A DNA stretch of 64,000 nucleotides. Origin: Candidatus Altimarinota bacterium (GTDB lineage: Bacteria; Patescibacteriota; Gracilibacteria; UBA4473). Below, piece by piece: positions 15,868-64,000 of this stretch (position 1 is its first letter; the number at the start of each line of letters is the position of its first letter). The notes under the pieces were generated by a model. The model saw only the letters and a program-made list of their open reading frames with translations, searched no databases and was not told the DNA's origin. A program made the translations under genes and the position numbers. The stretch is from positions 1,262,060 through 1,326,059 of the forward strand of contig OZ246423.1 in NCBI GenBank assembly GCA_965231215.1, given 5' to 3'.

Positions 15868-15882
15868 ACTGGACGAGATTAG

Positions 15883-16737
15883 ATGACTTTAGAAAATACA
15901 GCACTAAAATTCCAAAACGTTCACAAGAAATATGGCGATTTTACCGCACTTAAAAACGTTACTTTTGAAGTAAAAGAAGGAGAATTTATTGCGCTTCTTG
16001 GGCCGAATGGAGCCGGAAAAACAACGCTTATTAATTGTCTAAATGGATTGACCTCCCGTAATGGAGGTGAAATATCTGTATTTGGTGAAGACCCAGAAAA
16101 AAATCCCCTATCGACTAAAATGAATTTGGGAATTGTAGAACAAGAACTGGTATTTGATCCCTTTTTTACGCCTTTAGAGATGCTTCGTCTACGTCGAGGT
16201 CTATTTGGCCTTAAACCGGATGAAGCCTATGTAAATTGGTTACTGGAAAAACTCAGCCTTGAAGATAAAAAAAAGGTTCGTGCGAGAGAACTTTCTGGCG
16301 GAATGAAACGAAGACTTATGATTGCTAAAGCTTTAGCTCATGAACCCAAAATTTTAATTCTAGATGAACCTACAGCTGGAGTAGACGTTGAATTGCGTAA
16401 TGCTTTATATGACTTTTTACGAGCATTGAGAAAACAAGGTCTTACGATTGTGTTAACTACCCATTACCTAGAAGAAGCAGAGTTGTTGGCTGATCGTGTA
16501 GCGATTCAAAACCTAGGAGAAACCGTTGTCTTTGAGGATACAAAAAAACTTTTAGCCACTAAAAATAGATGGTTATGTGTGGAATTTGAAGATGGAACTG
16601 TTGGGAAATTTGAACTTAAAGCCGATACCAGTGTTAGAAAAACGCTTGATAGCTTTGGTTCTAAGAAAATTAAAGATCTCAAAATCCAAGAACCCAATTT
16701 AGAAGAAATATTTTTAGAATTTACGCACCAAAAATGA
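15883..16737 (+). CDS. ABC-2 type transporter ATP-binding subunit (YadG-like)
   Basis: GPNGAGKTT, LSGGMKRRL, LDEPTAGVD, TTHYLEEAE. Confidence 0.93.
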   Translation: MTLENTALKFQNVHKKYGDFTALKNVTFEVKEGEFIALLGPNGAGKTTLINCLNGLTSRNGGEISVFGEDPEKNPLSTKMNLGIVEQELVFDPFFTPLEMLRLRRGLFGLKPDEAYVNWLLEKLSLEDKKKVRARELSGGMKRRLMIAKALAHEPKILILDEPTAGVDVELRNALYDFLRALRKQGLTIVLTTHYLEEAELLADRVAIQNLGETVVFEDTKKLLATKNRWLCVEFEDGTVGKFELKADTSVRKTLDSFGSKKIKDLKIQEPNLEEIFLEFTHQK

Positions 16738-17501
16738 TTCACCCTATTCGGCTCTGGACCCTTACCTGGAAAGAAACTTGCCGGTTTCTGAAAGTCTGGA
16801 GCCAAACCGTAGGATCACCAGTCGTAATTGCGGTGATGTATTTTGCTGTATTCGGTGGGGCTCTAGGATCAAAAATCACAGAATTAAAAGGCGTCCCCTA
16901 CTCTATTTTTATTATTCCAGGATTAGTGCTTTTACAATCCACCACTAACGCCTTTATGAATCCTTCAAGTTCCCTTATTATCGCTAAATATAGTGGAACT
17001 ATGTCTGATATATTGCTGCCTCCCCTGTCGGCCTTAGAAAAAACTTTGGGGTATTTGTTGGGAGGGCTTTTTCGGGGAATAATGGTGTCCATTTTGATAT
17101 TTTTGGTAGCTGGATTTTTTACTGGAAAATATATTCCAGAACATTGGGACGTATTTATTTTAATGCTTATTTTGGCTAATGGAGCCTTTGCCCTTCTAGG
17201 AACGCTTGTTGGAATTTGGGCCAAAAACTTTGATCAAATTTCAGGATTTTCAACTTTTGTAATTACCCCGATGGGGTTTTTAGGAGCTATCTTTTATAGT
17301 CTGGAAATGTTGCCGCCACTGGCCCAAAAAATGTCACTCTTTAATCCGTTCTTTTATTTTTCTGATGGCCTTAGATATGGCTTTTTGGGGGTTAATGAAG
17401 TCGATCCACAGTTTAGTATTGGGATGACTCTAGCCATCTTTGTAGTCCTGTTTATATTAAACCTTTGGGCCTTTCATAAAAATTGGCGATTAGGTATTTG
17501 A
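16734..17501 (+). CDS. ABC-2 type permease (YadH-like)
   Basis: KE..RF.KVW.QT, PGL, P..FLG..FYSL..LP, NPFFY..G.RYGF; ATGA overlap with the ATPase gene. Confidence 0.92.
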   Translation: MIHPIRLWTLTWKETCRFLKVWSQTVGSPVVIAVMYFAVFGGALGSKITELKGVPYSIFIIPGLVLLQSTTNAFMNPSSSLIIAKYSGTMSDILLPPLSALEKTLGYLLGGLFRGIMVSILIFLVAGFFTGKYIPEHWDVFILMLILANGAFALLGTLVGIWAKNFDQISGFSTFVITPMGFLGAIFYSLEMLPPLAQKMSLFNPFFYFSDGLRYGFLGVNEVDPQFSIGMTLAIFVVLFILNLWAFHKNWRLGI

Positions 17502-17532
17502 TTGTTTTGTAAAATATTCTAGAATTCATCAG

Positions 17533-19179
17533 ATGAAAATATTACTACTTGGCTCTGGAGCTCTAAAAATTGGAGAGGCCGGAGAGTTTGATTATTCTGG
17601 TTCTCAAGCCATTAAAACTTTCAAAAGACATGGGCATGAAGTAGTCCTAATAAACCCAAATATTGCGACGGTTCAAACAGATCCAAAAAACTTTGCCCCC
17701 TCAGAAAACTGTGCTGATAAAGTTTATTTTTTGCCCGTGACTCCCAACTTTGTAGAAAAAGTAATAGAGAAAGAATCACCAGAAGCGCTCGTGCTTTCAT
17801 TCGGCGGACAAACAGCGCTTAACTGTGGACTAGACCTGGAAGAAATGGGAATTCTCAAAAAGCATAAAGTAAAGGTTCTTGGCACCCCCGTAGAGGTTAT
17901 TAGAGCCACGGAAGATCGAGAAATTTTTGTAAAAAAATGCACGGAAATTGGAGTGAAAACACCTAGATCCATTCCGGCTTATTCTATGCAAGAAGCTAAA
18001 GCTGCGGCTAAAGAAATTGGGTTTCCTCTTATTATGCGTGCCGGTTTTGCTTTAGGAGGGAAGGGGTCAGGATTTTGTGAAACAGAAGATAAATTTGAAG
18101 GCATGGTAAAAGATGCACTTTCATTTTCTCCTCAGGTACTAGTAGAAGAAGACCTTCGCGGATGGAAAGAGCTAGAATATGAAGTAGTTCGAGATGGCGA
18201 AGATAACTGTATTACCGTAGTGAATATGGAAAATTTTGATCCATTAGGAATTCATACCGGTGAATCTATTGTTATTTCTCCATCACAAACTCTTTCTAAT
18301 GCAGAATGGCAACTACTCAGAACTACCGCTATCAAAACGATCCGACATTTAGGCATTGTAGGAGAATGTAATATTCAATATGCTCTCGATCCAAATAACT
18401 CGGAAGAATATAGAGTCATTGAGGTAAATCCGAGGTTGAGTAGAAGTTCTGCCTTAGCCTCAAAGGCCACAGGATACCCTCTGGCTGCCGTGGCGGCAGA
18501 AATTATTTTGGGAAATCCTCTGTATAAGATCCCAAATGCTATTACGAAAGAAACAACCGCTTTTTTTGAGCCAGCACTGGATTATGTAGCGCTCAAAATA
18601 CCTCGATGGGATCTTCAAAAGTTTAGAAAGGTAAGCCATCAAATCGCTACAGAAATGAAATCTGTAGGGGAAGTTATGGCTTTGGGACGAAACTTCCCTG
18701 AAGTGGTACAAAAAGCGGTTCGAATGTTGGGTATTGGAAGCCATGGAATACTTGATGCGCCAGCTAAATTTGAAGATAAAGCCGATGTTGAGGAAAATTT
18801 GAGAATGGCTTCTCCCAGAAGAATCTTCGCAGTCGCAGAAGGACTCTATCAAGACTACTTTACCGTAGATGAAATCTTTGAGATGACCAAAATTGATCGA
18901 TGGTTTTTAATGCAAATGAAACGAATTACTGATTTTGCTCAAAGATTAGAAAAATCAGGAATAAAAAATCCAGAAATAATTAAAGAAGCTAAGGTTTTAG
19001 GATTTGCTGATCAAGAAATTGCACGTCTCACAGGAAAATCTTTTAAAGAAATATACCAAATGCGTAGAGACCACAATATTGCGCCTGTAACCAAGCAAAT
19101 AGACACTCTGGCAGCGGAATTTCCAGCTCAAACAAATTACTTGTATACGACCTACTTAGGAAACAAAAACGACGTCTAG
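17533..19179 (+). CDS. carB: Carbamoyl-phosphate synthase large subunit, N-terminal half only (carboxyphosphate + oligomerization domains)
   Basis: GSGALKIGEAGEFDYSGSQA, GWKELEYEVVRD, GIHTGES, IEVNPRLSRSSALASKATGYP, KQIDTLAAEFPA.TNYLY.TY, then stop at 548 aa. Confidence 0.93.
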   Translation: MKILLLGSGALKIGEAGEFDYSGSQAIKTFKRHGHEVVLINPNIATVQTDPKNFAPSENCADKVYFLPVTPNFVEKVIEKESPEALVLSFGGQTALNCGLDLEEMGILKKHKVKVLGTPVEVIRATEDREIFVKKCTEIGVKTPRSIPAYSMQEAKAAAKEIGFPLIMRAGFALGGKGSGFCETEDKFEGMVKDALSFSPQVLVEEDLRGWKELEYEVVRDGEDNCITVVNMENFDPLGIHTGESIVISPSQTLSNAEWQLLRTTAIKTIRHLGIVGECNIQYALDPNNSEEYRVIEVNPRLSRSSALASKATGYPLAAVAAEIILGNPLYKIPNAITKETTAFFEPALDYVALKIPRWDLQKFRKVSHQIATEMKSVGEVMALGRNFPEVVQKAVRMLGIGSHGILDAPAKFEDKADVEENLRMASPRRIFAVAEGLYQDYFTVDEIFEMTKIDRWFLMQMKRITDFAQRLEKSGIKNPEIIKEAKVLGFADQEIARLTGKSFKEIYQMRRDHNIAPVTKQIDTLAAEFPAQTNYLYTTYLGNKNDV

Positions 19180-39075: not shown

Positions 39076-41213
39076 TTACAGTAAGCTAGAGGGGTTTATG
39101 TCAATCTTTGCTTGGGACTCTAAATTTAATGAAGTAATAAACTCAACTAATTTAGTTTTATTCGGTCCAGTAATAAATACATGAAACCAGTATTGGTTAT
39201 GTGCACGAGGAAAAAAAGCCGGAGCCCAATTTACTTCAAATTCCGCTTCTTTAGTTTCTGATAACTTTTGTTCTAACATTTTATAAGTTCCAAAAGCTTC
39301 AGCAAAAGCCTGCGCTTTATCTCTATGTTGAAAAACTATTTTTCCAACAGTGCTAAATGGAGGGAGCCCCAAAGCTTTGTGTTGATTTAACCGGGCTTCT
39401 AAAAATCCTTTGACGTCATGGGTCTTCAAGTAGGTAACAATGGATTTTCATCCTGATAAGTCTGAATAATAATTTTGCCTTGGGTATGCCTTCTACCAGC
39501 TCTTCCAGATACCTGTTCTAACAGATTGAAAACTCTTTCCTCTGTGTTGTAGTCAGGCAAATTAAGACCTACATCGGCTAAAATAACCCCAACAGTCTGC
39601 ACCTTTTCAAAATCCAAGCCTTTGGCCACCATTTGGGTTCCGAGTAAAATATCAGCTTTATGGTCCTTAAACTGTGCATGAAGTTTTTCAAAATCATATT
39701 TACCGGTAATACTATCTTTATCAGCTCTCAGGATAGTTCGGTTGGGGAAATGTTCTTTTAGTACGGCTTCTACTTGTTGTGTCCCCCACCCTTTGAAACT
39801 AAAGTCTTTGTTATTACATTCTGGGCATACTTCTTTAAAAATCTCCATCTTCCCACAAGTATGACAAAGCAATGTGGGTTTTCCAGACTTGTGTAGTTTC
39901 ATAGGTAAATCACAATTTGGACATTTAAAGGTATGCCCACAGGCACTACAAAAAAGTGAGCCACTCCAGCCACGCTTATTTAAAAATAAAACAGCTTGTT
40001 TTCCAGCTTCAAAAGTGGCCTTTAAAGTTTCTACAAGTTTTTCAGAAAGGGGTGAAAAATTTCCTTTTTTAACTTCATTTTTTAAATCTACAATTTGTAT
40101 ATCTGGTAGATTTGTCCCAAAGATCCGCTCTTTTAATTCTACTAATTCAAAATGTGCCTCTTGCACCTGCAAAAAGGTAGCTAATTTAGGAGTAGCGGTA
40201 CCAAAACATAAACCGGCATTAAACTTTTTTGCCAATATGGCCACTACATCATGAGTCCAAAATCGAGGGGCAAATTCATTTTTATATGTCCATTCATGTT
40301 CTTCATCTACGACAATAGCTTTAAGTTTTGGAAGTGGAACTAGGCACGCTGACCGGGTGCCTACCAAAATTTGAGCAGCCCCTGTTTGGAGTTGCTTCCA
40401 TACTTGTACCTTTTCTTGAGGGGTAAGGTTTGAATGCCAAACGACCGCCTTACCTGGAAAAAATTGATGAAATTCTGAAAGCAGTTGAGGCGTAAGATTT
40501 ATCTCTGGAACCAGCATTAAAGCCTGGCCATCCTTCCCTATTTTTTCAGCAAGAAATCGTTTATAGATTTCTGTTTTTCCACTCCCCGTTATTCCCCAAA
40601 GCAATACGGGCTTGGTTGAATGTATACACCTATCTAAAGCTTTTTTTTGGAGTGCCGTAAGTCTGTTTTGTTTTTTGGGCTCGTCTGAACTACCAAAATC
40701 TTTCCGAGCAATAAGCTTCTTTTGTTCACAAACCAAAAACCCCTTAGATACAAAATTTTTAAACACGGGTTTTAATTCTTGAGGCACTTTCTGATCCTCA
40801 AAAAAGGGGTTCTTTTTAAGCCATTCTAAAAATTCAGTTTGTTTAGGTCCTTGTCTTTGAGGCTTTTCAAAATCCAGCTTTAGAGAATAAAAACGACTAT
40901 ATTTTTCTGGTACTTCTTTTAGTAAAAAAGGTTCAGGAATCTGCAAACTTAACACCTTGGCCAGTTTGGTGAAATTGGCTTGGGCTACCTCGCGTGCGAG
41001 ACTTAAATAATCTTCAGATAAAAAAGATTCATCTAAAATATTCAAAACTTCCTGAGTATCAAAATCGCTTGATTCAGTGGCTTCAATCACAATTCCAATT
41101 CTTTTTTTGTTTCTAAATAAAACCTGAACCCGAGATCCTAAAGGAATTTCGACTGTAGAATGCCACGTATAAAAATCAGGCACATTTCGTAAATAAATTC
41201 TGTAATAGCGCAT
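39076..41213 (-). pseudogene. priA: Primosomal protein N' with a single frameshift near 39430 (real or sequencing error)
   Basis: GITGSGKTE, LVPEI.LTPQ, VDEEHE, ATP, four CxxC, GTQMVAKGLDF, QVSGRAGR. The C-terminal LPPF region continues in another frame (39076-39429). Confidence 0.88.
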
Positions 41214-41245
41214 TGAAGACAAAACCATTCTATGTAAAATAACAA

Positions 41246-49417: not shown

Positions 49418-50461
49418 CTAAGCGCTTTTTTTATAGATATTACTTCGGTATGGACTTTTGCTTAAAGAAAGGGTGTTTTCTTTTTTGAATTTTTTCCATT
49501 CCTCACGCTGCTCTTCCTCTGGAAGAAGAGCGATACGAGCACATTTACTACTACAACAATTCCCATACTTTTTTTTACAATTTTCACACTGGATAAACAG
49601 TAAATTACAGGCCTTGTTAGCACAATTTGTATGCGCATCACAGGGAGCTCCACACAAATGACACTGAGCAATTACATCATCGGTAATGCGCTCTCCGATT
49701 CGTTCATCAAAGACAAAATTTTTTCCAATAAACTTATTCTCAAGGTTCTTAGACTCTACCTCATGTTTGTATTGAATAATGCCACCGTGAAGCTGATAGA
49801 CTTTTTTAAATCCATGATGTCGGAGGTAGCTACTCGCCTTTTCACACCGAATTCCACCGGTACAGTAAAGCAGTACTGGTGAATCTTCCTTTCCTTCTAA
49901 CATATCTTTAGTCATAGGCAGCTCTTCCCTGAAAGTAGCCGCATCTGGAAGCACCGCTCCATCAAAATGGCCAACTTCAGACTCATAAAAATTACGCATA
50001 TCCACACATACTGAGTCTTCTGATTCAAGCATTTTATTAAAATTCTCAGCATTTAGATGTTCGCCAACATCTCCAGCATCAAAGGTAGCATCATCAATCC
50101 CATCGGCTACGATTTTATGTTTAACTTTGATCACCAATTTCCAAAAAGATTCTTTAGGTGATTCTACAGCGTGCTTAAAAGGTACATCCTTGAATGCTGG
50201 TTGAGCATAAAGATCTGCTACAAAAGCCTCCCAACTATGTGCTGGTACATTCATCTGGGCATTAATCCCCTCTTTAGCCAAATAGATTCGCCCTAGACAT
50301 CCAAATTCATTCCACTTCAAAAAAAGAGCATCTCGCAACGCTTCTGGATCTTCAATTTTCGTGTATCGATAAAAAGAAATAGTCTTTCGCTCAAAATCTT
50401 CTTGAGCCAGTTTTTCTAAAGCCTGCTCTTTGTTAAGCCGATTATGTAAAAACTTCGTCAT
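49418..50461 (-). CDS. trhO: tRNA uridine(34) hydroxylase, rhodanese-domain (TrhO/YceA)
   Basis: SFYRY, GRIY.A.EGINAQ, DMRN.YESEVGHF, YCTGGIRCEKAS, GKNFVFDER; ATG at 50461 preferred. Confidence 0.92.
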   Translation of the reverse strand: MTKFLHNRLNKEQALEKLAQEDFERKTISFYRYTKIEDPEALRDALFLKWNEFGCLGRIYLAKEGINAQMNVPAHSWEAFVADLYAQPAFKDVPFKHAVESPKESFWKLVIKVKHKIVADGIDDATFDAGDVGEHLNAENFNKMLESEDSVCVDMRNFYESEVGHFDGAVLPDAATFREELPMTKDMLEGKEDSPVLLYCTGGIRCEKASSYLRHHGFKKVYQLHGGIIQYKHEVESKNLENKFIGKNFVFDERIGERITDDVIAQCHLCGAPCDAHTNCANKACNLLFIQCENCKKKYGNCCSSKCARIALLPEEEQREEWKKFKKENTLSLSKSPYRSNIYKKSA

Positions 50462-50495
50462 AGCGCACGTGATCCTACAAAAAAACAAAAAGAAT

Positions 50496-51395
50496 TCAAG
50501 ATACACTGAAAATTCCAGCTTCTTTCATCTGTCTAAGCATCTGCATTCGAGTAGTGTGATTAGCGGTACCACTTATTTTAAAGTGTCCAAGTACTCTTCC
50601 TGGGAAAAAAGATTTCAACTCTCCTAAAAAATCAGCTATAGCCGTATGGGCACAGTGTTCATTTCGTCCATCTTGATATTGTGAATGCATTTTAGAAACA
50701 ATATCATCAACTGATTCACCTCTTCTGGCCAAAATATAAGTATCGTCAGTTATCCCTTTATTCAAAGTGCTTAATGCTCTAAATACAAAAGCATTTACAC
50801 ATGTCTGAAGTCTTGCTACTGGACGAGCAGAGACATGACTCTCTATCTCTTTATAAACGTCTTCTATTACTAATGGTTGAGGGTCTAAATCAACAAGATC
50901 TCGATGATAGGTTTGCACAATCATACTCAACTTATCACTAGGAGAAACATCTATTCTCCCTCCCCCATACTGAAAGCTCTCTGAACTTTTTACAGCATAG
51001 GTCTCAATAGAGTTTTCTAGTTTAATTTTATGCTCTAGAAGCTTGCCATATAACGGTGTTATCCCCGGCCCTACAACAGGAAAAAAATTCCAAGTAATGC
51101 CCTCAGGAAAGGCAATATCGACATCAGTAATACTACTAGCACCTAGAGCTGACAGTGTATGCTCCAATACTTTAACTACTGTTCCTTCAATATCGCACTC
51201 CAAATATCTAGCTAAACCATTATGAGCTCTCAAAGAGTTATCATTAACAGCTGTATATCCCCCCGTTTTTGGAGATATAATTCGTAGTCCTTTTCCATCA
51301 TTAGGAGAAAATATAACAGGTGTTTGGGCCTTTCCTAGTCCAAGATAAGATGGTAATTTTACCTCAAGGGATTTATTTAAAGTGGCGCGCCTCAT
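50496..51395 (-). CDS. Divergent LpxC-like zinc deacetylase
   Basis: RATL.K, VLEHTLSAL...ITDV.I, FPVVGP, VAR, NEHCAHTAIADFLGEL, G.F..SG.ANH follow the order of LpxC motifs. Confidence 0.65.
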   Translation of the reverse strand: MRRATLNKSLEVKLPSYLGLGKAQTPVIFSPNDGKGLRIISPKTGGYTAVNDNSLRAHNGLARYLECDIEGTVVKVLEHTLSALGASSITDVDIAFPEGITWNFFPVVGPGITPLYGKLLEHKIKLENSIETYAVKSSESFQYGGGRIDVSPSDKLSMIVQTYHRDLVDLDPQPLVIEDVYKEIESHVSARPVARLQTCVNAFVFRALSTLNKGITDDTYILARRGESVDDIVSKMHSQYQDGRNEHCAHTAIADFLGELKSFFPGRVLGHFKISGTANHTTRMQMLRQMKEAGIFSVS

Positions 51396-51511
51396 TAATT
51401 ATTTTTTAAAACTTTATTTGAAAAAGTCAATATTTTCACTTCTCAATGCTACCAAAACTATTTTGAAATTCCAAATTTTTAGTATAGTGCGGCTCGACTG
51501 AAAAAAACTCT

Positions 51512-54091
51512 ATGATCCAACAATTTATTGACGCACTACTCGGAAATTATAACGCTAAGCAAATCAAAAAATGCGAACCTACCATAAAGCGTATTAATGC
51601 CTTAGATGAGGAATATAAAGCCCTTTCTGACACGGAGTTAAAACAAAAATTTGAAGAGTGGAAACAGCTACTCACTGAAGATCCAAAAAAAGTAGACCCC
51701 CTCTTGCCAGAAGTTTTTGCTGGCTCTCGTAATGCCTCGAGAAGACTTTTAGGACATAAATATGATGTCCGTGGTAAAGAAATGGAGTGGGATATGGTGC
51801 ATTATGATGTCCAACTCATTGGAGGAATGATTCTTCATCAAGGGAAAATTTCTGAAATGAAAACTGGTGAGGGAAAAACTCTCGTTTGTACTTTGCCCGT
51901 AATCTTAAACGCTCTAACAGGAAAAGGCGTTCACATTATTACCGTAAATGATTATCTGGCTCAACGTGATGCTGAATGGATGGCTCCACTCTATGAATTT
52001 TGTGGACTTTCTACAGGAGTAGTCATTAATGAGAAAGACAAACAAGCTCGCCAAGAAGCTTATAATGCCGATATTACTTATGGAACCAATAATGAATTTG
52101 GATTTGATTATCTACGAGATAATATGGCTCAAAGTGCCGATGAAATTGTACAAAGAGAGCTTCATTTTGCCATTGTAGATGAGGTAGATTCAATTCTTAT
52201 TGATGAAGCTCGGACACCCTTGATTATTTCAGCTCCAGCCGAAGAATCCACCGATAAATATGAGCGATACGCCAAGCTTATTACACACCTTAATCAAGGA
52301 GAAGATTATACCATCGATCTCAAACAAAAATCAGCTCATATCACAGAAGATGGAGCCAAAAAATTGGAAGGCCTTTTGGGTGTTTCTAATATGTTTGCCG
52401 AAGGCGGATTTGAAGAAGTCCACCATATGGAAAACGCCCTGAAAGCTAATGTAGTAATGATTAAAGATCAAGACTACGTAGTAAATAATGATGCGGTAAT
52501 TATCGTGGATGAATTTACTGGACGGCTCATGCCAGGAAGACGTTTTGCCGATGGACTTCACCAAGCCCTAGAAGCTAAAGAAAGCGTAACTATTCAAAGA
52601 GAATCAAAAACCCTAGCTACTATCACCTTCCAAAACTACTTCCGATTATACGAAAAACTGGCTGGAATGACCGGTACGGCTGAGACTGAAGCCGAAGAGT
52701 TTGCCAAAATCTATAAACTCGACACTATCGTCATTCCTACCAATAAACAAATCCAAAGAGCCGACCTTCCAGACAAAATCTTCAAAAACGAATCCGGTAA
52801 ATTTAATGCTATTATCCAAACGGTTCGTGAACTAAATGAAAAGGGACAACCAGTTCTTATTGGTACCGTAAACATTGATAAATCAGAAGAACTTTCATAC
52901 GCCCTTCAATCACAAGGAATAAAACATGAAGTTCTAAATGCCAAACAACATGAACGTGAAGCTGAAATTGTTGCCAATGCAGGACAAAAAGGAGCCGTAA
53001 CTATTGCCACCAATATGGCCGGACGAGGAACCGATATTAAGCTGGGGCAAGAAGTAAAAGCCTTAGGCGGGCTCGCTATCATCGGAACCGAAAGGCATGA
53101 ATCTAGACGTATTGATAACCAACTTAGAGGACGTGCTGGGCGACAAGGAGATCCAGGATTTACCCAGTTTTATGTCGCTATGTCCGATCCCCTTATGCGA
53201 CGATTTGGAGGGGAACGCCTAGAAGCGCTTATGGAAAGAATGGGACTACCAGAAGAAGAAGCCATACAAAATAATATGATCTCTAAATCCGTAGAAAATG
53301 CCCAGAAAAAAATTGAAGGATTCCACTTTGATGCCCGTAAACACGTAGTGCAATACGATGATGTGATGAATATTCATCGTGAAAAAATCTATACTCAAAG
53401 ACGAAAACTACTGGGCTCTGAAGCTATTCTTGAAGATACAGAAGAAATGCTAAAAGCACTGGTAGCCCAAATCATAGAAATGCAGGCACCAACGCTAGAA
53501 GTAGATAAAAATTGGGACATAGAAGAGATTGCCAGACTTATAAACACCATAGCCCAAAACGAGCATGATTCAGTAACTATCGAAGAGCTTGAGGCGTTCC
53601 AACATAGAAGTGAAATGATTGAATCTATGCAGAACTACCTCTTAGACGCCTGGGACAAAAAACAATCAGAATTTCCACCAGAATTAGTAGACGAAGTATC
53701 TAAACAAGTAATTCTACGATCTATTGACCAACTCTGGCTGGAACACATTGATGAAATGACTCACCTTCGAGACCGAGTAGCCTTAGCTGGATACGCCCAA
53801 AAAGATCCTATTATGGAATATAAGGCCGAGAGTTTCAGAATGTTCTCACGGTTACTACAAAATGTGAGAATGACTTCTATTGCCAACCTTTTTCGAGTGA
53901 AATTCCGAGAAAAACCAAAACTAGAAGCTACAGACTACAGTAATGTGCAAACCAATGCTGACCAAATCAACGCAACGTTAGAAAATACGGGTGAATACGG
54001 GAATGACAAATCTCTCAGACATTCGAAACTTGGTAATGAGCCATCAATGAGTCGTCAGCAAAGAAGAGCCATGAAGCGAAAAAAGAAATAA
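51512..54091 (+). CDS. secA: Protein translocase subunit SecA
   Basis: EMKTGEGKTL, TVNDYLA.RD, FDYLRDNM, IVDEVDSILIDEARTPLIIS, IATNMAGRGTDI, QLRGRAGRQGDPG. Confidence 0.98.
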   Translation: MIQQFIDALLGNYNAKQIKKCEPTIKRINALDEEYKALSDTELKQKFEEWKQLLTEDPKKVDPLLPEVFAGSRNASRRLLGHKYDVRGKEMEWDMVHYDVQLIGGMILHQGKISEMKTGEGKTLVCTLPVILNALTGKGVHIITVNDYLAQRDAEWMAPLYEFCGLSTGVVINEKDKQARQEAYNADITYGTNNEFGFDYLRDNMAQSADEIVQRELHFAIVDEVDSILIDEARTPLIISAPAEESTDKYERYAKLITHLNQGEDYTIDLKQKSAHITEDGAKKLEGLLGVSNMFAEGGFEEVHHMENALKANVVMIKDQDYVVNNDAVIIVDEFTGRLMPGRRFADGLHQALEAKESVTIQRESKTLATITFQNYFRLYEKLAGMTGTAETEAEEFAKIYKLDTIVIPTNKQIQRADLPDKIFKNESGKFNAIIQTVRELNEKGQPVLIGTVNIDKSEELSYALQSQGIKHEVLNAKQHEREAEIVANAGQKGAVTIATNMAGRGTDIKLGQEVKALGGLAIIGTERHESRRIDNQLRGRAGRQGDPGFTQFYVAMSDPLMRRFGGERLEALMERMGLPEEEAIQNNMISKSVENAQKKIEGFHFDARKHVVQYDDVMNIHREKIYTQRRKLLGSEAILEDTEEMLKALVAQIIEMQAPTLEVDKNWDIEEIARLINTIAQNEHDSVTIEELEAFQHRSEMIESMQNYLLDAWDKKQSEFPPELVDEVSKQVILRSIDQLWLEHIDEMTHLRDRVALAGYAQKDPIMEYKAESFRMFSRLLQNVRMTSIANLFRVKFREKPKLEATDYSNVQTNADQINATLENTGEYGNDKSLRHSKLGNEPSMSRQQRRAMKRKKK

Positions 54092-54928: not shown

Positions 54929-56869
54929 CTAAGATTCTAAGGCTTCCTCTCTATTTTCTTGATCAAAGATATCAATGGCTTGTTCTAAAAATTCTTCTAT
55001 TTGGTAAATGGTAAGCAATTCTTGGATAGCCGTACCTTCTGTTACGGGTTTAAATCGAGCCAGGCCCGCAAAACAGAAGCTTTCAGGCTTAAACACGGCA
55101 CTTCCGGTCATAGCACCGTCCATATCCGGAAGACTGAAATTTTTCTTATCAAATACATCCGCAGAGATTATGTCTCCTGCCTCTGTCTGGAAAAGTTTTC
55201 GGTCTAAATCATCTTCCCCAATGAGACCATCCTCATATTCCGTTCTACTTGGAGCTGGATATCCCAGTCCAAAAATCTTAGTCCCCAGAGAGAAGTCTCT
55301 ATCACATTTTTCGTTAGTTTGAGCTTCATAATCTAAAATAGTTTCAAATTTCCGGTCTTCTGCTTTTACACCAAGGAATTGATTGTTTTCAATATGGATG
55401 CTTTCTGGAACCGCAAATACCATCTTGTATTCATCACTAATGGCTGGCATTGAGGTAAGTCTAGCCTGGTAGACCTGATATTTTCTATTTTTACTAACAT
55501 CAGGTTCACCGATACTTACCAAACACCCTTTCTCATGAAAATCGAAATCCATAAGATCTGAAGTCGTCAGTACAATCCCTTTTGGAGAAAGTACTAACCC
55601 TGTAGCCCACATGCCTTTAGTGCCGGCAAGAATAAAGTTTTCTTCTGGCGCTGGGCAATAGATTTTAGCGACATATTTTTCTGTCACTTTGCTTTTTTTG
55701 GCTACCACTGGTTTAGGTGGTGGTGGAGGGCCTCCCCCTCCAAACGGTGGGGGAAGAGGTGGTGGAGCATTCCCGGTTTTCTTCCAACACGGAATACCCG
55801 CTCTATTTTTTTGGCACAGACGAGAGGTCTGTCTGATAATTTCTTGTAGTACATCACTGGTCTTTTTTAAAGTAGCCACTTGGGCATCGTGACGTTCATT
55901 GAGTGAAGCTTCTCCTTGCCCTGCAATATGACCTAATCGACGGACTTGTGAATTAATCTTGGCTTGATGCTTCTGGCTAAATTTTTTGAGCCACGCTTCT
56001 CCTTTTTGAGCCGCTAGTATCTTACTTGCAACTCTATCTGAACCTTTAAATTTGGTAGAGTCTTTTCCCCAAAAATCCACATTCCTATTGGGTTTAATAG
56101 CCGCTAAGGCTGTCTGATCTTCAAGGAGCGAAAACGCAAACTGCTGACCCCATTTAAAAGGCATAAAAGCACTTTTAATAGCCCCAATTTCGCTCTTTCT
56201 TTGGCTTCTAGGCACTTCTCCTTTGGCCTGGTTAGCTGGTTTTTTATTTCTTTCTGCCTCTTCTTCAAAATCTCTATCTGGTTTGAGCGCCTGAGCAAAT
56301 GAGGGAGTTCTGGGTTGTTCAAGCTTTGCACTCGGTTCAGAAACATTCTTAGCAGCAATTTGTTCAGTCACACTAGCTACGTCAATTAAACTATACTCAG
56401 CTCGAGCATCTCGATCTCGCCCCCTGGCTTGGACACCATGTGTGTAATATTCGTTAATAGCTTGTTCTCCAACTGAAGCTGGACCTTCATGATCTAGAGG
56501 ATTATTTGAAATAAAATTAATTAAATTTTTATTCTCTTGTAAAAAAGACTGATGAAACAAATTAGCCAACTGACGGGCATTATCACAGGCTGCTTGATTG
56601 CCTTCATCACAGGCCGCAAAGTCATTTGCCGTGTCTCCTTTAATTCGTGTGAATTCTTGTGTATAGGCTTTGTCTGCATTCTCTTCAATTAACTTTTCGG
56701 CCAGATGAGTCCGTGGATCAGCTTTAAAAAGCTTCGCTGATGGAGAATTCTCAATATCACCTACTGCAATCCCTCGAGCATTTCTATACAGATCTGGTCC
56801 TTTATACGTTTTTCCCTCGACCTGAAAAGGTGTCCAGAGTAAAAGCAAAAGTGAAACAATAATTCCCAT
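54929..56869 (-). CDS. Secreted protein with Pro-rich linker and C-terminal inactive trypsin-like domain
   Basis: Signal peptide; PPPLPPPFGGGGPPPPP; VAKIYC, TGLVLSPKGIVLTTSD, LGYP, GAMTGSAVF. Confidence 0.7.
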   Translation of the reverse strand: MGIIVSLLLLLWTPFQVEGKTYKGPDLYRNARGIAVGDIENSPSAKLFKADPRTHLAEKLIEENADKAYTQEFTRIKGDTANDFAACDEGNQAACDNARQLANLFHQSFLQENKNLINFISNNPLDHEGPASVGEQAINEYYTHGVQARGRDRDARAEYSLIDVASVTEQIAAKNVSEPSAKLEQPRTPSFAQALKPDRDFEEEAERNKKPANQAKGEVPRSQRKSEIGAIKSAFMPFKWGQQFAFSLLEDQTALAAIKPNRNVDFWGKDSTKFKGSDRVASKILAAQKGEAWLKKFSQKHQAKINSQVRRLGHIAGQGEASLNERHDAQVATLKKTSDVLQEIIRQTSRLCQKNRAGIPCWKKTGNAPPPLPPPFGGGGPPPPPKPVVAKKSKVTEKYVAKIYCPAPEENFILAGTKGMWATGLVLSPKGIVLTTSDLMDFDFHEKGCLVSIGEPDVSKNRKYQVYQARLTSMPAISDEYKMVFAVPESIHIENNQFLGVKAEDRKFETILDYEAQTNEKCDRDFSLGTKIFGLGYPAPSRTEYEDGLIGEDDLDRKLFQTEAGDIISADVFDKKNFSLPDMDGAMTGSAVFKPESFCFAGLARFKPVTEGTAIQELLTIYQIEEFLEQAIDIFDQENREEALES

Positions 56870-58566: not shown

Positions 58567-59547
58567 TTATCCACTACCGGTTTTAATACCGGAAACGTCA
58601 GTAGTAATCCTATCCCCCATTTTTTGTAGGAACGCACTACGAGCTTCTGTCAGCTGAACATTCTGTTCACGTTGTTTATTAGCCGCAGTATTCCGTGCCA
58701 TCTGCCGACCTTTATCAGCTAAGTCTTTTTTCACTTGATGGTCTTGCTCAATCGTAGCATCAACGTTGTCAGTCAGTTGTTGGTTGATCGCCGCTAACTT
58801 TTGGCGATGTCTTTGAATGGCGGTAGAAATTTGAAGCTGGCTATAGGCTTTAGCATTAGGGTCTGAACGAACCGAAGCATAGGCCGCATCTACAAAATAA
58901 TCTAAAAAGGCAAATTGAGTTCCTTTAAACGCTGTTTCTGAACAAGCATGACTTCCCTCTCCACCATTAGCGCAATAAGAAGCTAACGCACAAGAACGAC
59001 AGTTCTGTACAAACTCATTATGAATCTGTGCTTTGGCATTTAAATTTGTCGCCGCATTAGCAAAATTCATAGAATTATTCTTATCTCCCATCGTTGTTTT
59101 ATGACCATCCGGATGACCTGAGGCAGCTACAAACCCCGCTTTTTTCTGATCTTTTTGAGCTTTGGCTAAATCATAATCACAGTTCGGTTTTTCTATAGGT
59201 TTATATTTATCACTCGAACCTAATTTCTTGTTATCTCCATCTACTTTTTTACCTACTGTTTTTTTATCATATTCAGCCAAGCCTGTTGTTTGCATACACT
59301 GTATTTTTTCTTGTTGGTCTTTTACGATATCTTCAATTTTTTCATCAAACCCATAAGGCTTTTTATCTTTGGTGATTCCTTCCGTGGCTAGCTTATAACG
59401 CTCTTGGGTAGTTTGGTCAGTTTCTTTCTGGTTATTAGCCTGAGCTACTATAAAAAGCACTTCTAGGCCTAAGAAAAACGGCACAGCTACCACTGGAATC
59501 ATCACCAGAAGTAGTAAGTGTCGAAAAATTTTAGAAATTTTTATCAT
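58567..59547 (-). CDS. Secreted/anchored Cys-containing helical hypothetical protein
   Basis: Long hydrophobic N-terminus, six Cys, C-terminal coiled-coil-like region; ATGA overlap with the upstream gene. Confidence 0.7.
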   Translation of the reverse strand: MIKISKIFRHLLLLVMIPVVAVPFFLGLEVLFIVAQANNQKETDQTTQERYKLATEGITKDKKPYGFDEKIEDIVKDQQEKIQCMQTTGLAEYDKKTVGKKVDGDNKKLGSSDKYKPIEKPNCDYDLAKAQKDQKKAGFVAASGHPDGHKTTMGDKNNSMNFANAATNLNAKAQIHNEFVQNCRSCALASYCANGGEGSHACSETAFKGTQFAFLDYFVDAAYASVRSDPNAKAYSQLQISTAIQRHRQKLAAINQQLTDNVDATIEQDHQVKKDLADKGRQMARNTAANKQREQNVQLTEARSAFLQKMGDRITTDVSGIKTGSG

Positions 59548-62500
59548 TGGTTCTCGAGTATTCTACTAGGAATAAATAAATTTCTGAAGTAAGTTGGCAC
59601 CCCCTCTTTGAGAGCCATCAGTATAGCGTATAGCTGAGTATAATTTGTCTCTGGTAAAAGGATATCAAAATCATCATTAATTTCTTGCTGTACATGGAAT
59701 CGGTAATCAATAGGGCCTTGCAGGGCTACTTTTTCTCCGTTAAAGAGATCCATAATCACTTTGTCTGAAGCACTTTTTAGGCTTATAATGCTTTGATCAA
59801 ATACAGGGATTCCGACACTTACATTTTGAGCTGATAAAAATTCTCCAGGATCATCCTCATACATTTTTGGGTTGCCTTCAAAGACGCATATTTCTACGTC
59901 TTCAAGCCGAACCTCTTTCCCCGCTGGAAGAACCTGAATTACGGTTTCGGCTTCTACATTTGGTCCAGAGTAGTAGAAAATAAACATTTCGGTATCTTGA
60001 TCCCCAGAAAGAATAGTCGCATCATTAATATACGTATTCTCAGCCACTTCATTCAGACACGCATCATACGGGAATTTTTGTATATTAGTGTAGAGTGGTG
60101 ATTTTATTTGAGGTGTTCCGGACACGCTTTTTACCAATGCATTGGGAGTGCGAATAACATTAAGATCACTTGGAGCGCGTAGAAGGAGTGCTTCTACTCT
60201 TTGGTATTGCGCCACTTTTTGAGTCTTTGGCACCATAATCTCAAACTGAGTATCTGGTCGTTCTGTTAGATACCATTCATAATACTCTGGTGGATCGGTA
60301 TCCTGATGATTAAAGGTAATTCTTGGGCTTTCCCCAAACATAAAGCTCTCGTAATAACTCACAGGAGAAAAAGATTTTTTAAGCGTTTCTTCTAGTGTTT
60401 TGGTTTTTAGAGTAAATCTAAGCTCATCACCAACTGGGTCTGTTTTTCTTTTTACATAAATTTGATCATTCATAGCCCAAAGGACTTCATTGATTCCGTC
60501 ATCATCCAAGTCATCAATAGCTAAAGGAATATCAGGAGTTGCAATGGGCATTCGGAATAAAAACTCTGGCCGATCGTCTTTGTGCTGAGAATAATACAGT
60601 CCAGACTTAATCATATAGCCAGCATCATCTTCATTTTGGGCGTTTACCAGTTGCATCTCTGTAGGTTGCTGGCTTACGCCAGTGGTATTGATAATAGTGG
60701 TGAGGTTGCCAAGATTTTTGAGTAACTCACCCCCTTGATTTGGACTGCTGATGTAACCCGAACCTTCTAAATCGGTCAGGAGATTTCCGAGTTTCGCTAA
60801 ACTAGCTACATTCTCTAAACTTCCGAGGCTTCTGACCTGATCCGCTATTTCAGCTAGCTTGGTTTCATCTACAATATTTCCAAGCGATTTAAGTAGCTCT
60901 TGTTGAGCGGCAGTCTTCAAATCCCCAAGTTGTGGTAGGTTTCGGATCAAAGCGGCCGCTTGTTTAAGGTTCGCGATATGTCCAAGACTTTGTAGGTTTT
61001 GGAGCATACCTCCAATTTCACCAATTTTAGCTATATCTCCTAGTTTCCCAAGGCCCTTAATTTTATCGGCTACTTGCGTGAGCTTTTTGAGGTCTTTAAG
61101 GTTTCCCAGTTTTTCTAAAGCACTGGTAATCTCCGCTAACTTATTAAGTTGCTCTAAACCAGCAAGTTGTTTTAGGCTCGGTAGATCTTTCACTAAGTCT
61201 CCAGCTTTACCAAAACTATGAATACTACGCTTAAAGTCTGGGGCTGAAGGTAGTTTGAGATTCCCCAGTCCGCCACTTCCACTGGAAGCTAAATATCGTT
61301 TGTCTTGCTCTAGAATTTGTTGAACCGTACTATGAGCAAAAAAGTTTTCAGGATTAGACTTATAGATATTGGCCAACATTCGAGTTTCTTGAGCTCGAGA
61401 TTTTTTGTAGTTTTCAAGTTGAGCTATATAGGCATCAAAAGTCTCTTTTACTTCTTTTCTATACGCAAGGTTATAGTCTGGTTCTGGAACTCGAATATTG
61501 GCTAAAACCGCCCTTAGTTCTTTCTGCTCTGGAGAGTACGCTGGCATATGAGCCGCTAATCTTTTTAGATCTTTTACCATCCTATAAGGAGTTGAAGTTG
61601 CCGGCTGGGAAGCTGTAATTCTTTCAATCCAGCTTCGATCTTCTCGAAGCGATTCTGGAATAAATCCGCCATCGGCTACGGTTATAGGCAGTGAAGCTGA
61701 GGCGTTCTGATTAAAGAATTTAAGGTGTTGCTGAGCCTGATCCCTTAATTTTTTAAGGACGCCTTCAAAGAGGGTTTTTCTTTTTCCATCTCCATCTTTG
61801 TTTTTAGATTTCCCAAAGGTAGAAAGTAGGTTTTTTGGAGCTTGAGCGTGGAATCCTTTTAGCTGTCCATTCCCAAAGTCTCGCTTTCTATCAAGGGATC
61901 TTCTGTCGGTAATTTTTTCACCTTGAGCTTTACCCCATCCTTCAGGAACTGATGTCGCATTAAGGGCAATATTACATTCCAAATTCATCCACTTTAGTGG
62001 TTTTTGAATCATCCCCATCAGGTCACCAACAATATTATTTTGTTGTGTAGCTGGGGGGCTCAAGTTTGGCTGATCAAATGGAATATTTGGCATTGGCATC
62101 TGCATCAGCTGTGGTATTGGCAGTTTTAGTAGTTTCTTTACTTTTGGAATTTTTAGAGGGAGTTCTTGTACTGGTTCAGGTAAGGACTCAATATCTAGTT
62201 CTGCCAAAGTTTTAAGACTGGCCTCTTTTGGAAGTTTTGTAAACATATCCCCCAGTAATGGATTTTGTGTGGCCTTAGTGACAATATTGCCTTCAACATC
62301 AAGTGTCGGGAAAAATTTAAAAGTATCCCCATTTTCCCACTCTCTCAAACTCAACCACCCTTGGGCTGCATCAATGTTAGCTTTAAGGTCAGTGGCTAAC
62401 CCTTGAGGAATTTTAATTTTAGTCTGAGCTTCTACGATATCTTCAGAATAATTTGGAACTGATGGTGGAGCATCCATAGTATTAATCTGCCCCATGTCTA

Positions 62501-64000
62501 CCCGATTAATCTGTGGCGTGGGAAGCGTGATATCCATATTCCCCCCTGGAGTCATTAACCTTCCATCATATTGGGTATTAGGATTTTTTGGCATATGCAT
62601 AACCTCTTGGTTAAAGCCTTTGTTGAAGGTGTCTCCATGTAACCAAGGGAAAAGCCCGCCTACGTGAACTTGGGGAACTCGACATTTATCACTGTATTTA
62701 AAATTAATATTTTGCACGCCTTGAATAGCCTTTAAGATTTGTTTATTGAGTAGAGATTTTGCATCCCACTTAGCCTGCCGGCTACTTTGTTCGGCTTTAA
62801 GCCCCTGACTGTAATTAGACATTTTCTGTACCACTTGAGTCGCTGCCGCTACAATTCTGTTTTCCATATCACGCATCTGCAACACCTGTTTTGCCGCCTG
62901 ATTTACCATTTGGCCGAGCGCTTTAAAATTCTGATCATGTTGAGCGGTATGATTCTGAATACTGTTTCGAGCTTCTAAGGCTTTTTCTAAAGAACCAGCA
63001 TATTCATTAAGCGCTATAACTAGTTTTGGAATTTTGGGTCTAACCTCTTCTAAATCTGTCACAAGCCCTTCCCATCGAGTGGCAAAAGTATCATAATCTA
63101 CGGCAATAAAGGTCTTCATTTCATCCAAACGCTGAACCGATCGTGTGATAAGTTGGAGTGATTTTTCACATACTTCTTTGTTTTCACTTGCCTTGGGCCC
63201 TTGGCATAAAGTCTTTACTTCTTCAGCAAAGGCTCTTAGCTGTGTTTCGTAGGCTTGAACTCCAGTAGTTAGGGCGGCTTTTTCTGGTAAAACTAATTGA
63301 GCAGATTTAAGGGTCGTCAGCGTTTCCAGAACTTCAATACTAGAGGTGAGAGTCTCCATTACCTGATTAACAGCAAATGGAATTTTTTCTTCTAGCTCTT
63401 GCATCAGCCCTTGTTTATTTTGGTCAAATTCTTGTTTTTTATTCTGCATGTCTTCTTGCGACATTGCTGGAATACTAATCGGTACTGGTTCATATTGAGT
63501 GTTTATAAGATCGGCTCCAAGCCTGTCCATAGCCAGTCGCATATCTCCGGTAGCCTGTGAAGCACTTTGAGCCATTTTAGCTCCAAAATCGGTAGAAGGT
63601 TTAAAGCTCGCATTCCCTGCATTTCCCTGCCCAATACCTTTACGGAAACTGGCATGTTGAGCTCTTTGACCATCACCAAATTTAGAAGAACCTACTCTTT
63701 GGGCCGGAATTTTTCCTTTATGGCCGCGAGGGGCAGAACCAATAATAGAATTAGCCGCGGCCAATCCTTCACTGAGTTTCAAAAATATATTACTTCCACT
63801 TTTATATTTACTGGCCGCAGCGGCCATTTGTAAATTATTAGGGAAAAATTTGGAGAGTTTGCTGTCCAGAGCTTTCCCAATTTTATTCTGAAGGAAGGCT
63901 TGCTTACTTGCCCTCAAGAAAGAATTGGGATCCCATTTTGGTTTAGGCGGGCCAGCCATATGTCTTATTTTAGAACCAAAAGCATCCATAATCACGGACT
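59544..64000 (-). CDS. Giant protein (>1483 aa, 5' end outside window): coiled coil, Pro-rich region, Leu/Gly quasi-repeats, FG-GAP/VCBS-like motif
   Basis: Frame open to the window edge; IDDLDDDGINEVLW Ca-binding-type motif; beta-rich acidic C-terminus. Confidence 0.75.
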   Translation of the reverse strand, partial: SVIMDAFGSKIRHMAGPPKPKWDPNSFLRASKQAFLQNKIGKALDSKLSKFFPNNLQMAAAASKYKSGSNIFLKLSEGLAAANSIIGSAPRGHKGKIPAQRVGSSKFGDGQRAQHASFRKGIGQGNAGNASFKPSTDFGAKMAQSASQATGDMRLAMDRLGADLINTQYEPVPISIPAMSQEDMQNKKQEFDQNKQGLMQELEEKIPFAVNQVMETLTSSIEVLETLTTLKSAQLVLPEKAALTTGVQAYETQLRAFAEEVKTLCQGPKASENKEVCEKSLQLITRSVQRLDEMKTFIAVDYDTFATRWEGLVTDLEEVRPKIPKLVIALNEYAGSLEKALEARNSIQNHTAQHDQNFKALGQMVNQAAKQVLQMRDMENRIVAAATQVVQKMSNYSQGLKAEQSSRQAKWDAKSLLNKQILKAIQGVQNINFKYSDKCRVPQVHVGGLFPWLHGDTFNKGFNQEVMHMPKNPNTQYDGRLMTPGGNMDITLPTPQINRVDMGQINTMDAPPSVPNYSEDIVEAQTKIKIPQGLATDLKANIDAAQGWLSLREWENGDTFKFFPTLDVEGNIVTKATQNPLLGDMFTKLPKEASLKTLAELDIESLPEPVQELPLKIPKVKKLLKLPIPQLMQMPMPNIPFDQPNLSPPATQQNNIVGDLMGMIQKPLKWMNLECNIALNATSVPEGWGKAQGEKITDRRSLDRKRDFGNGQLKGFHAQAPKNLLSTFGKSKNKDGDGKRKTLFEGVLKKLRDQAQQHLKFFNQNASASLPITVADGGFIPESLREDRSWIERITASQPATSTPYRMVKDLKRLAAHMPAYSPEQKELRAVLANIRVPEPDYNLAYRKEVKETFDAYIAQLENYKKSRAQETRMLANIYKSNPENFFAHSTVQQILEQDKRYLASSGSGGLGNLKLPSAPDFKRSIHSFGKAGDLVKDLPSLKQLAGLEQLNKLAEITSALEKLGNLKDLKKLTQVADKIKGLGKLGDIAKIGEIGGMLQNLQSLGHIANLKQAAALIRNLPQLGDLKTAAQQELLKSLGNIVDETKLAEIADQVRSLGSLENVASLAKLGNLLTDLEGSGYISSPNQGGELLKNLGNLTTIINTTGVSQQPTEMQLVNAQNEDDAGYMIKSGLYYSQHKDDRPEFLFRMPIATPDIPLAIDDLDDDGINEVLWAMNDQIYVKRKTDPVGDELRFTLKTKTLEETLKKSFSPVSYYESFMFGESPRITFNHQDTDPPEYYEWYLTERPDTQFEIMVPKTQKVAQYQRVEALLLRAPSDLNVIRTPNALVKSVSGTPQIKSPLYTNIQKFPYDACLNEVAENTYINDATILSGDQDTEMFIFYYSGPNVEAETVIQVLPAGKEVRLEDVEICVFEGNPKMYEDDPGEFLSAQNVSVGIPVFDQSIISLKSASDKVIMDLFNGEKVALQGPIDYRFHVQQEINDDFDILLPETNYTQLYAILMALKEGVPTYFRNLFIPSRILENQ

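Follow-up and report, generated by a model that had tools for sequence, protein, structure and literature searches.

A putative LpxC-fold amidase with a conserved catalytic core and replaced substrate-binding residues in Gracilibacteria and Nanoarchaeota

This report concerns a gene for an LpxC-like protein in Candidatus Altimarinota bacterium, a member of the class Gracilibacteria in the Candidate Phyla Radiation (CPR). The gene lies in a stretch of 64,000 nucleotides (hereafter the window; contig OZ246423.1, positions 1,262,060 to 1,326,059), where an open reading frame (ORF) of 299 aa with an ATG start and no internal stops occupies positions 50496..51395 of the minus strand. It is located upstream of trhO, pilT, pilT and dnaE and is divergent from secA, in a genome that is one closed contig of 1,326,059 bp (99.29% complete). 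Judging from sequence comparison and a structural model, we consider it probable that this accessory gene encodes an active metal-dependent amidase of LpxC fold, with a pocket re-tooled away from UDP-3-O-acyl-N-acetylglucosamine (UDP-3-O-acyl-GlcNAc; UDP, uridine diphosphate) and probably directed to a soluble anionic N-acetylated substrate.

The Pfam family of LpxC (PF03331) matches the window protein with an expect value (E) of 0.0043 and 17 bits, over profile positions 56-266 of 268. Used alone as a phmmer query, the protein has 0 matches in the Protein Data Bank (PDB), and a tblastn search of the genome with E. coli LpxC misses the LpxC-like gene itself. With phmmer, 47 of 1.84 billion cluster representatives match at E <= 0.001, and 39 of these reach E <= 1e-10; the closest family member has E 7.7e-58. 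All 38 full-length family members that make up our alignment, A2, match PF03331 at E <= 1 (best 2e-16); the profile built on A2 matches Aquifex aeolicus LpxC in the PDB at E 1.7e-22, and hhalign places the family profile on E. coli LpxC over 262 columns with a probability of 96.5% and E 7.8e-10. The AlphaFold2 model built on A2 has a mean predicted local distance difference test score of 94.2 and a predicted template modelling (TM) score of 0.92. When this model was compared with the PDB by Foldseek, LpxC structures were recovered at E 2.4e-19 and TM 0.75-0.85, and the 54 matches at E <= 0.001 are all LpxC among the matches listed. The model strands 47-69 and the beta-alpha-beta element 175-196 are assigned to Insert I and Insert II from their position alone. 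We are confident that the window protein is predicted correctly to have the two-domain LpxC fold.

For the comparison of residues, the alignment comprised 43 family sequences (38 plus five from recoded genomes, described below), eight intermediates from archaea or CPR bacteria, 59 canonical LpxCs and the E. coli enzyme. In LpxC, we take the Zn ligands to be His79, His238 and Asp242, the general base to be Glu78 and the catalytic histidine to be His265; Thr191 presumably serves the oxyanion, Lys239 binds the diphosphate, and the acyl tunnel belongs to Insert II. The translation holds the motifs VLEHTLSAL (E78-H79), NEHCAHTAIADFLGEL (H250, D255, E259) and ANH (H280), and hhalign pairs E78/H79 with E78/H79 of E. 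coli, H250 with H238, D255 with D242, E259 with D246, and H280 with H265. The gene and the codons that matter most are listed here.

50496..51395, minus strand: coding sequence of the LpxC-fold deacetylase-like protein (P0001), from the ORF list, Pfam, AlphaFold2 and Foldseek
51207..51209, minus strand: Arg63 codon, at the E. coli Leu62 position (Insert I); Arg in 41/43 family sequences
51159..51164, minus strand: Glu78-His79 codons (GAG CAT), presumably the general base and first metal ligand; kept in 43/43 family, 8/8 intermediate and 59/59 canonical sequences
50811..50828, minus strand: codons 190-195, A-R-P-V-A-R replacing canonical A-R-T-F-G-F, from the residue comparison; hhalign pairs ARP with ART
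50619..50648, minus strand: His250 to Glu259 codons (H-T-A-I-A-D-F-L-G-E; CAT, GAT), presumably the second and third metal ligands and the acid orienting His280; H250 and D255 invariant
50556..50561, minus strand: Asn279-His280 codons (His265 equivalent); His invariant in all 110 aligned sequences

Six residues are invariant in all aligned sequences, namely Glu78, His79, Glu234 (Glu246 in the window protein), His238 (His250), Asp242 (Asp255) and His265 (His280), and this core is kept in 43/43 family sequences despite identities of only 24-41%. Other positions have changed. Thr191, found in 59/59 canonical enzymes, is Pro in 32, Ala in seven and Gly in four of the 43 family sequences (Pro192 in the window protein), and Phe192, also canonical in 59/59, is Ile, Leu, Val or Met in the family and Val here. 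Lys239 (canonical 59/59) is replaced by Thr in 26, Ala in six, Ser in five and Gly in four, with Lys not among the listed residues, and by Thr251 in the window protein. The same canonical fraction applies to Asp246, which is Glu in 42/43 family sequences (Glu259 here), and to Gly264, which is Asn in 29/43, while His19 (canonical 56/59) is variable in the family and lost in the window protein. The Phe194 position is occupied by Arg in 40/43 (Arg195 here); at the Leu62 position, that of Arg63, canonical enzymes have Leu in 35/59 and Arg in 16/59. A bulky Ile, Val or Leu stands at the Gly210 position, and canonical P-I-M-D-G-S reads P-V-V-G-P-G in the window protein, which carries the full family signature (Arg63, A-R-P/A-x-x-Arg195, N-E-H-x-x-H-T, Glu259 and Asn279-His280). 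Thus aligned, the substrate-binding residues appear to be systematically replaced and the catalytic core kept. The preliminary description of this DNA, made from the sequence alone, had already pointed to the three motifs as LpxC motifs in order, had noted that the Lys of HKxLD and P-x-x-DGS were altered, and had proposed a Foldseek comparison with LpxC; the motifs do align to LpxC, the altered sites are Thr251 and P-V-V-G-P-G, and the fold was recovered as given above.

We propose that the protein would act as a cytoplasmic amidohydrolase, with Zn as the most likely metal. The metal, held by His79, His250 and Asp255, would activate a water molecule; Glu78 would be the general base, and His280, oriented by Glu259, the acid and stabiliser; the outcome would be hydrolysis of an acetamide or a similar amide. 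LpxC-like chemistry is expected because the catalytic residues are conserved. The substrate is presumably not UDP-3-O-acyl-GlcNAc, because the protein lacks His19 and Phe192 as well as the Thr of the oxyanion and the Lys that binds the diphosphate, and it may well be anionic and N-acetylated, because the conserved Arg63 and Arg195 stand at the Leu62 and Phe194 positions of Insert I and Insert II (alignment positions). Amino-sugar phosphates, acidic nucleotide sugars and other acetylated metabolites would be candidates.

Six catalytic and metal-binding residues that stay invariant in 43 divergent sequences can hardly be accounted for unless catalysis is under selection; the ORF, moreover, has remained intact, and its model is confident. 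We therefore regard it as unlikely that the family consists of non-catalytic LpxC-fold proteins with a structural or binding role, or that the gene is a decaying relic, even though the gene is dispensable within its genus, the oxyanion Thr has been lost, and an LpxC domain outside lipid A synthesis, that of PEPS6, is reported in a preprint (bioRxiv 10.64898/2026.06.23.732312).

The genome was also searched for the enzymes with which LpxC would work. The sole match of the LpxA and LpxD profiles is a hexapeptide-repeat protein of 410 aa, which scores 16.5 bits with LpxA (cut-off 231) and 24.9 bits with LpxD (cut-off 242), and profiles of LpxB, WaaA, FabA/FabZ, Omp85 and LpxK have no match in the closed genome at E <= 1; the same lipid A and envelope searches did recover these families in control genomes. 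Pfam over 50 ORFs of the window, which include a sortase, two PilT ATPases, DnaE, SecA and GroEL/ES, gives no lipid A partner and no envelope-lipid gene near the LpxC-like gene. In 13 other carriers, LpxA over the cut-off was found in 0/13 and LpxB in 0/13.

These results bear on the reading of the protein as a genuine LpxC, acting on UDP-3-O-acyl-GlcNAc from or into a Gram-negative host, either for salvage or as an anti-host effector. CPR bacteria live on hosts, the model shows the full fold, including elements of Insert I and Insert II, and the catalytic residues are intact. However, Thr191, Phe192, Lys239 and His19, which vary little or not at all among the 59 canonical enzymes, are all replaced, and the family with the same replacements also occurs in Nanoarchaeota. 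The genome search gave no LpxD, LpxB or LpxK to use the product. Since the match to LpxC strand 1 begins at residue 3 of the protein, the N-terminus has no space for a leader peptide. We consider a genuine LpxC very improbable. The preliminary description had stated that no lpxA, lpxD or fabZ lies nearby and had asked for a genome search for lipid A genes: none of the three is found in the window ORFs or in the whole closed genome, and LpxA, LpxB, LpxD, LpxK and WaaA are all without a match over the cut-off. Its CPR label is consistent with the small closed genome and with a class that also holds genomes in which TGA is recoded to Gly, and its suggestion of a repurposed Zn deacetylase with a new substrate fits the invariant catalytic core and the replaced substrate-binding residues. 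Its other suggestion, an effector perturbing the host envelope, fares poorly, given the missing room for a leader peptide and the presence of the family in archaea.

The family is small and patchy, and is found in CPR bacteria of the window's class and in Nanoarchaeota. Among the 41 nearest relatives, the A2 profile is positive in 1/41, the window's own genome, and the 40 negatives include four genomes of the same genus; a phylum-wide sample gave 1/401 positive genomes and a class-wide sample 9/401. Besides the window's genome, five of the class matches are strong, and each contains 4-13 in-frame TGA codons; translation with table 25 (TGA=Gly) yields full-length proteins that carry the family signature. 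A sixth recoded copy (20 TGA codons) came from 141 genomes of one taxonomic family, of which 7/141 matched. The three weaker class matches are other LpxC types, at 164 bits (L027), 51 bits (L029) and 315 bits (L028) by Pfam. The last of these (L028:1084-2010, G1159:C4) is a canonical LpxC beside a CHU_C/type IX secretion system-type protein in an 88% complete CPR metagenome-assembled genome, and is probably on a contaminant contig. The first (L027:1105-2004, G1005:C20) is an orphan LpxC of Pfam grade with a pheT-like gene adjoining, in a 99%-complete CPR genome with neither LpxA nor LpxB. Scans of the genome_contigs and metagenome_contigs collections with family patterns found no relatives.

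In 11/38 databank family proteins (P0005, P0007, P0009, P0010, P0012, P0015, P0018, P0023, P0035, P0038 and P0045), Trp makes up 3-6.5% of residues and stands at 2-7 of 11 conserved-Gly columns. By sequence, these entries look like TGA=Gly (table 25) genes mistranslated with TGA=Trp, and the family would therefore be under-counted and partly mistranslated in the databanks. Of the 14 relatives nearest to the window protein, nine are such entries; its closest kin are therefore CPR genes of the same class.

On the archaeal side, P0014 (NCBI MFC1728274.1), from a Nanoarchaeota single-cell genome (single amplified genome, SAG, AM-311-K19), is a family member with archaeal neighbours, namely thermosome, Spt5, L11 and FtsZ; a contig scan with P0014 matched its own record alone. 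In an archaeal phylum sample, the A2 profile matches 9/401 genomes at E <= 0.001. Two of the nine are family members (G435 and G817) and six are LpxC types over the Pfam cut-off (60-164 bits); at the ninth, L019, the ORF listing holds no ORF of >= 100 aa. The intermediate sequences mostly keep Lys239 (6/8).

Quick maximum-likelihood trees were built, with support from the Shimodaira-Hasegawa-like approximate likelihood-ratio test (SH-aLRT) and a root that rests on the choice of outgroup. In the 87-row tree, a branch with SH-aLRT 99 separates the family (38 members and the G817 copy) from the canonical LpxCs and the other Nanoarchaeota copies, and these archaeal copies lie at the base of the canonical side. 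In the 54-row tree, rooted on those sequences outside the family, the family has a support of 100. The window protein is in a 15-row subclade (support 90) that adjoins the clade of all six recoded copies (eight rows; support 90) and the clade with the G817 archaeal copy, and P0014 branches near the family base. By these trees, the family appears to be a distinct clade derived from LpxC.

The gene occupies a slot whose borders are conserved within the genus. The features around it are as follows.

49418..50506, minus strand: trhO (UPF0176/rhodanese), downstream, conserved left border of the variable slot, from Pfam and orthologs
51396..51511, no strand: intergenic region of 116 bp, divergent, between the LpxC-like gene and secA
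51430-51401, minus strand: promoter-like TTGACT-18-AAAAAT, from a consensus scan
51512..54091, plus strand: secA, conserved right border of the variable slot, from Pfam; its 76% identical G004 ortholog adjoins the slot

Four same-genus genomes keep both trhO (63-74% identity for the orthologs) and secA (63-76% over the two genes), and the content between them differs. In G004 the occupant is a 270-aa PlsC-type acyltransferase (PF01553, E 4.9e-9; L009:7111-7923), and in G002 (L007:2604-3005) and G003 (L006:2722-3087) the occupants are membrane-anchored proteins of 121-133 aa; neither the PlsC-type nor the small membrane-anchored occupants have a tblastn match in the window's genome. The secA|trhO slot is thus a gene-replacement hotspot within the genus, and the LpxC-like gene is a dispensable accessory gene and a singleton in its genus. 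Its G+C content at third codon positions, 0.237, is at the 2nd percentile of 776 ORFs, and its codon-usage distance is ordinary (54th percentile); the foreign-DNA signature is weak. The promoter scan upstream of the gene gave four sites against 3.8 expected, which is not significant. A public 36.6-kb contig, possibly from the source sample, covers the whole stretch with zero differences and offers no variants. No RNA run is listed as containing the stretch, which is neutral as to expression of the gene.

Several further observations concern the locus and the rest of the window. The start of trhO is probably the ATG at 50461, matching the Met that starts the G004 ortholog (L009:7995), rather than the GTG at 50506; with this start, a 34-bp gap follows the stop of the LpxC-like gene instead of an 11-bp overlap. 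The E. coli gene order is ftsZ-lpxC-secM-secA (L021), and the LpxC-like gene of the window adjoins secA; in a Nanoarchaeota SAG (L010), the LpxC-type gene is two genes from ftsZ, and the likeness to E. coli is probably coincidence. Elsewhere in the window, priA consists of two abutting ORFs at 39076-41228 (minus strand), one of 600 aa (helicase and Zn-ribbon) and one of 117 aa (PriA_C), by either a frameshift or a genuine split. At 14800-19179 (plus strand), an ABC-2 transporter pair stands between carA and a half-length carB (548 aa). Two large ORFs have no Pfam match: one of 646 aa at 54929-56869 (minus strand), with a proline-rich PPPLPPPFGGGGPPPPP stretch, and one of 1483 aa at 59544-63995 (minus strand).

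The neighbourhoods of the other carriers show no stable partner. An M24 or Map peptidase is directly upstream in three recoded CPR loci from two genera. In archaea, cmk is directly downstream in three loci and cbf5/truB is upstream in a fourth (L010:9980-11582, L016:432-2040, L017:1489-3356 and L013:813-2409); these are probably one syntenic site, which may link the intermediate and divergent LpxC types. In G817, genes for a glycosyltransferase of family 2 (GT2) and an LPG_synthase_TM/UPF0104 membrane protein are divergent from the LpxC-like gene, and G908 has a Polysacc_synt flippase-type gene at a distance of about 3.5 kb. The remaining neighbours are unrelated. Three roles were tried and rejected. 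The upstream M24/Map genes prompted the idea of a peptide-deformylase substitute, and the genome has a normal def (154 bits). As for a NagA substitute, NagA is absent in all five genus genomes, and there is no complementary pattern. For a defence or phage gene, there is no match in PADLOC or PHROGs and no relative in viral_contigs.

Two narrower proposals about the substrate can be set against these neighbourhoods. The first is a salvage deacetylase of amino-sugar phosphates or nucleotides, for example a GlcNAc-6-phosphate deacetylase in place of the missing NagA. GlmS (tblastn E 1e-92) is present in the genome together with a ROK-type kinase-like match, NagA and NagB are missing, the new conserved arginines could hold a phosphate, and cmk adjoins the gene in three Nanoarchaeota loci, though two of the three are of the intermediate LpxC type. 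Such a role nevertheless seems rather unlikely: NagA is over the cut-off in 0/5 genus genomes, including the four that have no LpxC-like gene, there is no NagB for catabolic use of glucosamine-6-phosphate, and the cmk adjacency may be plain synteny. The second is deacetylation of a GlcNAc glycoconjugate that is lipid-linked or belongs to the envelope, which would be analogous to PIG-L or ArnD steps. The GT2 and UPF0104 genes in G817, the flippase-type gene in G908 and the Insert II scaffold that the model appears to retain would suit it. We find this proposal improbable, as such a context occurs in one or two of about 15 loci, the tunnel-lining residues are bulky or charged, and the membrane lipids of CPR bacteria and archaea are chemically different, which speaks against a shared lipid tail.

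The proposal of an active amidase with a re-tooled pocket also has points that weigh against it. The Pfam score of the window protein is under the gathering threshold (17 vs 27 bits), and NCBIfam gives 0 families for it at E <= 10. The alignment of the family with LpxC is weak in the middle third (the match of the A2 profile to the PDB covers 5-167 and 253-305), and the equivalences Phe194 to Arg195 and Gly210 to Ile215 are for that reason less secure than those anchored by motifs; the ART/ARP anchor itself is clear in hhalign. Catalysis could be poor without the oxyanion Thr, a gene that is a singleton in its genus may also be one that is being lost, and the neighbours vary by locus, so that no partner pathway emerges.

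If the amidase proposal is carried further, one may picture the first catalytic branch of the LpxC fold outside lipid A synthesis: an amidase family confined to episymbiotic prokaryotes with tiny genomes (Gracilibacteria-class CPR bacteria and Nanoarchaeota), derived from an LpxC captured by archaea, passed between domains, and acting on an anionic N-acetylated metabolite shared by these scavengers. Examples of such a metabolite would be amino-sugar phosphates, acidic nucleotide sugars and acetylated nucleotides of host origin. We offer this wider picture tentatively, as a possibility that is open to considerable doubt.

The gene has consequences for how lpxC is used and annotated. In Errington 2013 (PMC3603455), lpxC is given as the best single marker for lipid A and an outer membrane, and another paper describes CPR genomes as without lpxC (PMC5220378); our literature search on LpxC in CPR or DPANN (Diapherotrites, Parvarchaeota, Aenigmarchaeota, Nanoarchaeota and Nanohaloarchaeota) organisms found no paper on such homologs among those listed. 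Orphan LpxC-like genes in CPR bacteria and archaea would be false positives in surveys with lpxC as a marker. The databanks label the family proteins 'UDP-3-O-acyl-GlcNAc deacetylase', a label that we argue is wrong. New here are the Nanoarchaeota and TGA-recoded CPR members, the mistranslated entries, the variable slot in the genus and the residue map against 59 canonical enzymes. The LpxC fold is known as an antibiotic target, and a pocket rebuilt within it would extend its range of chemistry. The spread of the family over CPR and DPANN points to gene sharing between groups of ultra-small symbionts.

One of the closest known systems is LpxC itself (EC 3.5.1.108; PF03331; E. coli b0096, Aquifex aeolicus 1P42/4OZE). 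The window protein has the fold in common with it, is collinear over 262 columns and has the metal ligands, Glu78 and the equivalent of His265; it differs in its identity of 13-18%, in its separate clade, and in a genome where the Raetz pathway enzymes LpxA, LpxD, LpxB, LpxK and WaaA are not found. A second comparison is with the LpxC-type proteins of Nanoarchaeota, which have databank annotation only. MFC1728274.1 (P0014) and the G817 copy (P0037) are family members that share the signature residues and are likewise orphans, and GF345_04345 of 'Candidatus Woesearchaeota' is another Nanoarchaeota LpxC-type protein. The other Nanoarchaeota copies (L013-L018) are intermediate, with 60-164 bits in Pfam and a place on the canonical side of the tree, beside cmk or cbf5. 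The last comparison is with PEPS6, which the preprint presents as an LpxC-domain homodimer of the Chlamydomonas plastid-encoded RNA polymerase; the preprint says only that some enzyme-like PEPS subunits are without conserved active sites and does not name PEPS6 among them (bioRxiv 10.64898/2026.06.23.732312). PEPS6 resembles the family in being an LpxC-fold protein outside lipid A synthesis. PEPS6, however, is a structural subunit in a eukaryote, whereas the family described here keeps every catalytic residue and belongs to prokaryotes with tiny genomes.

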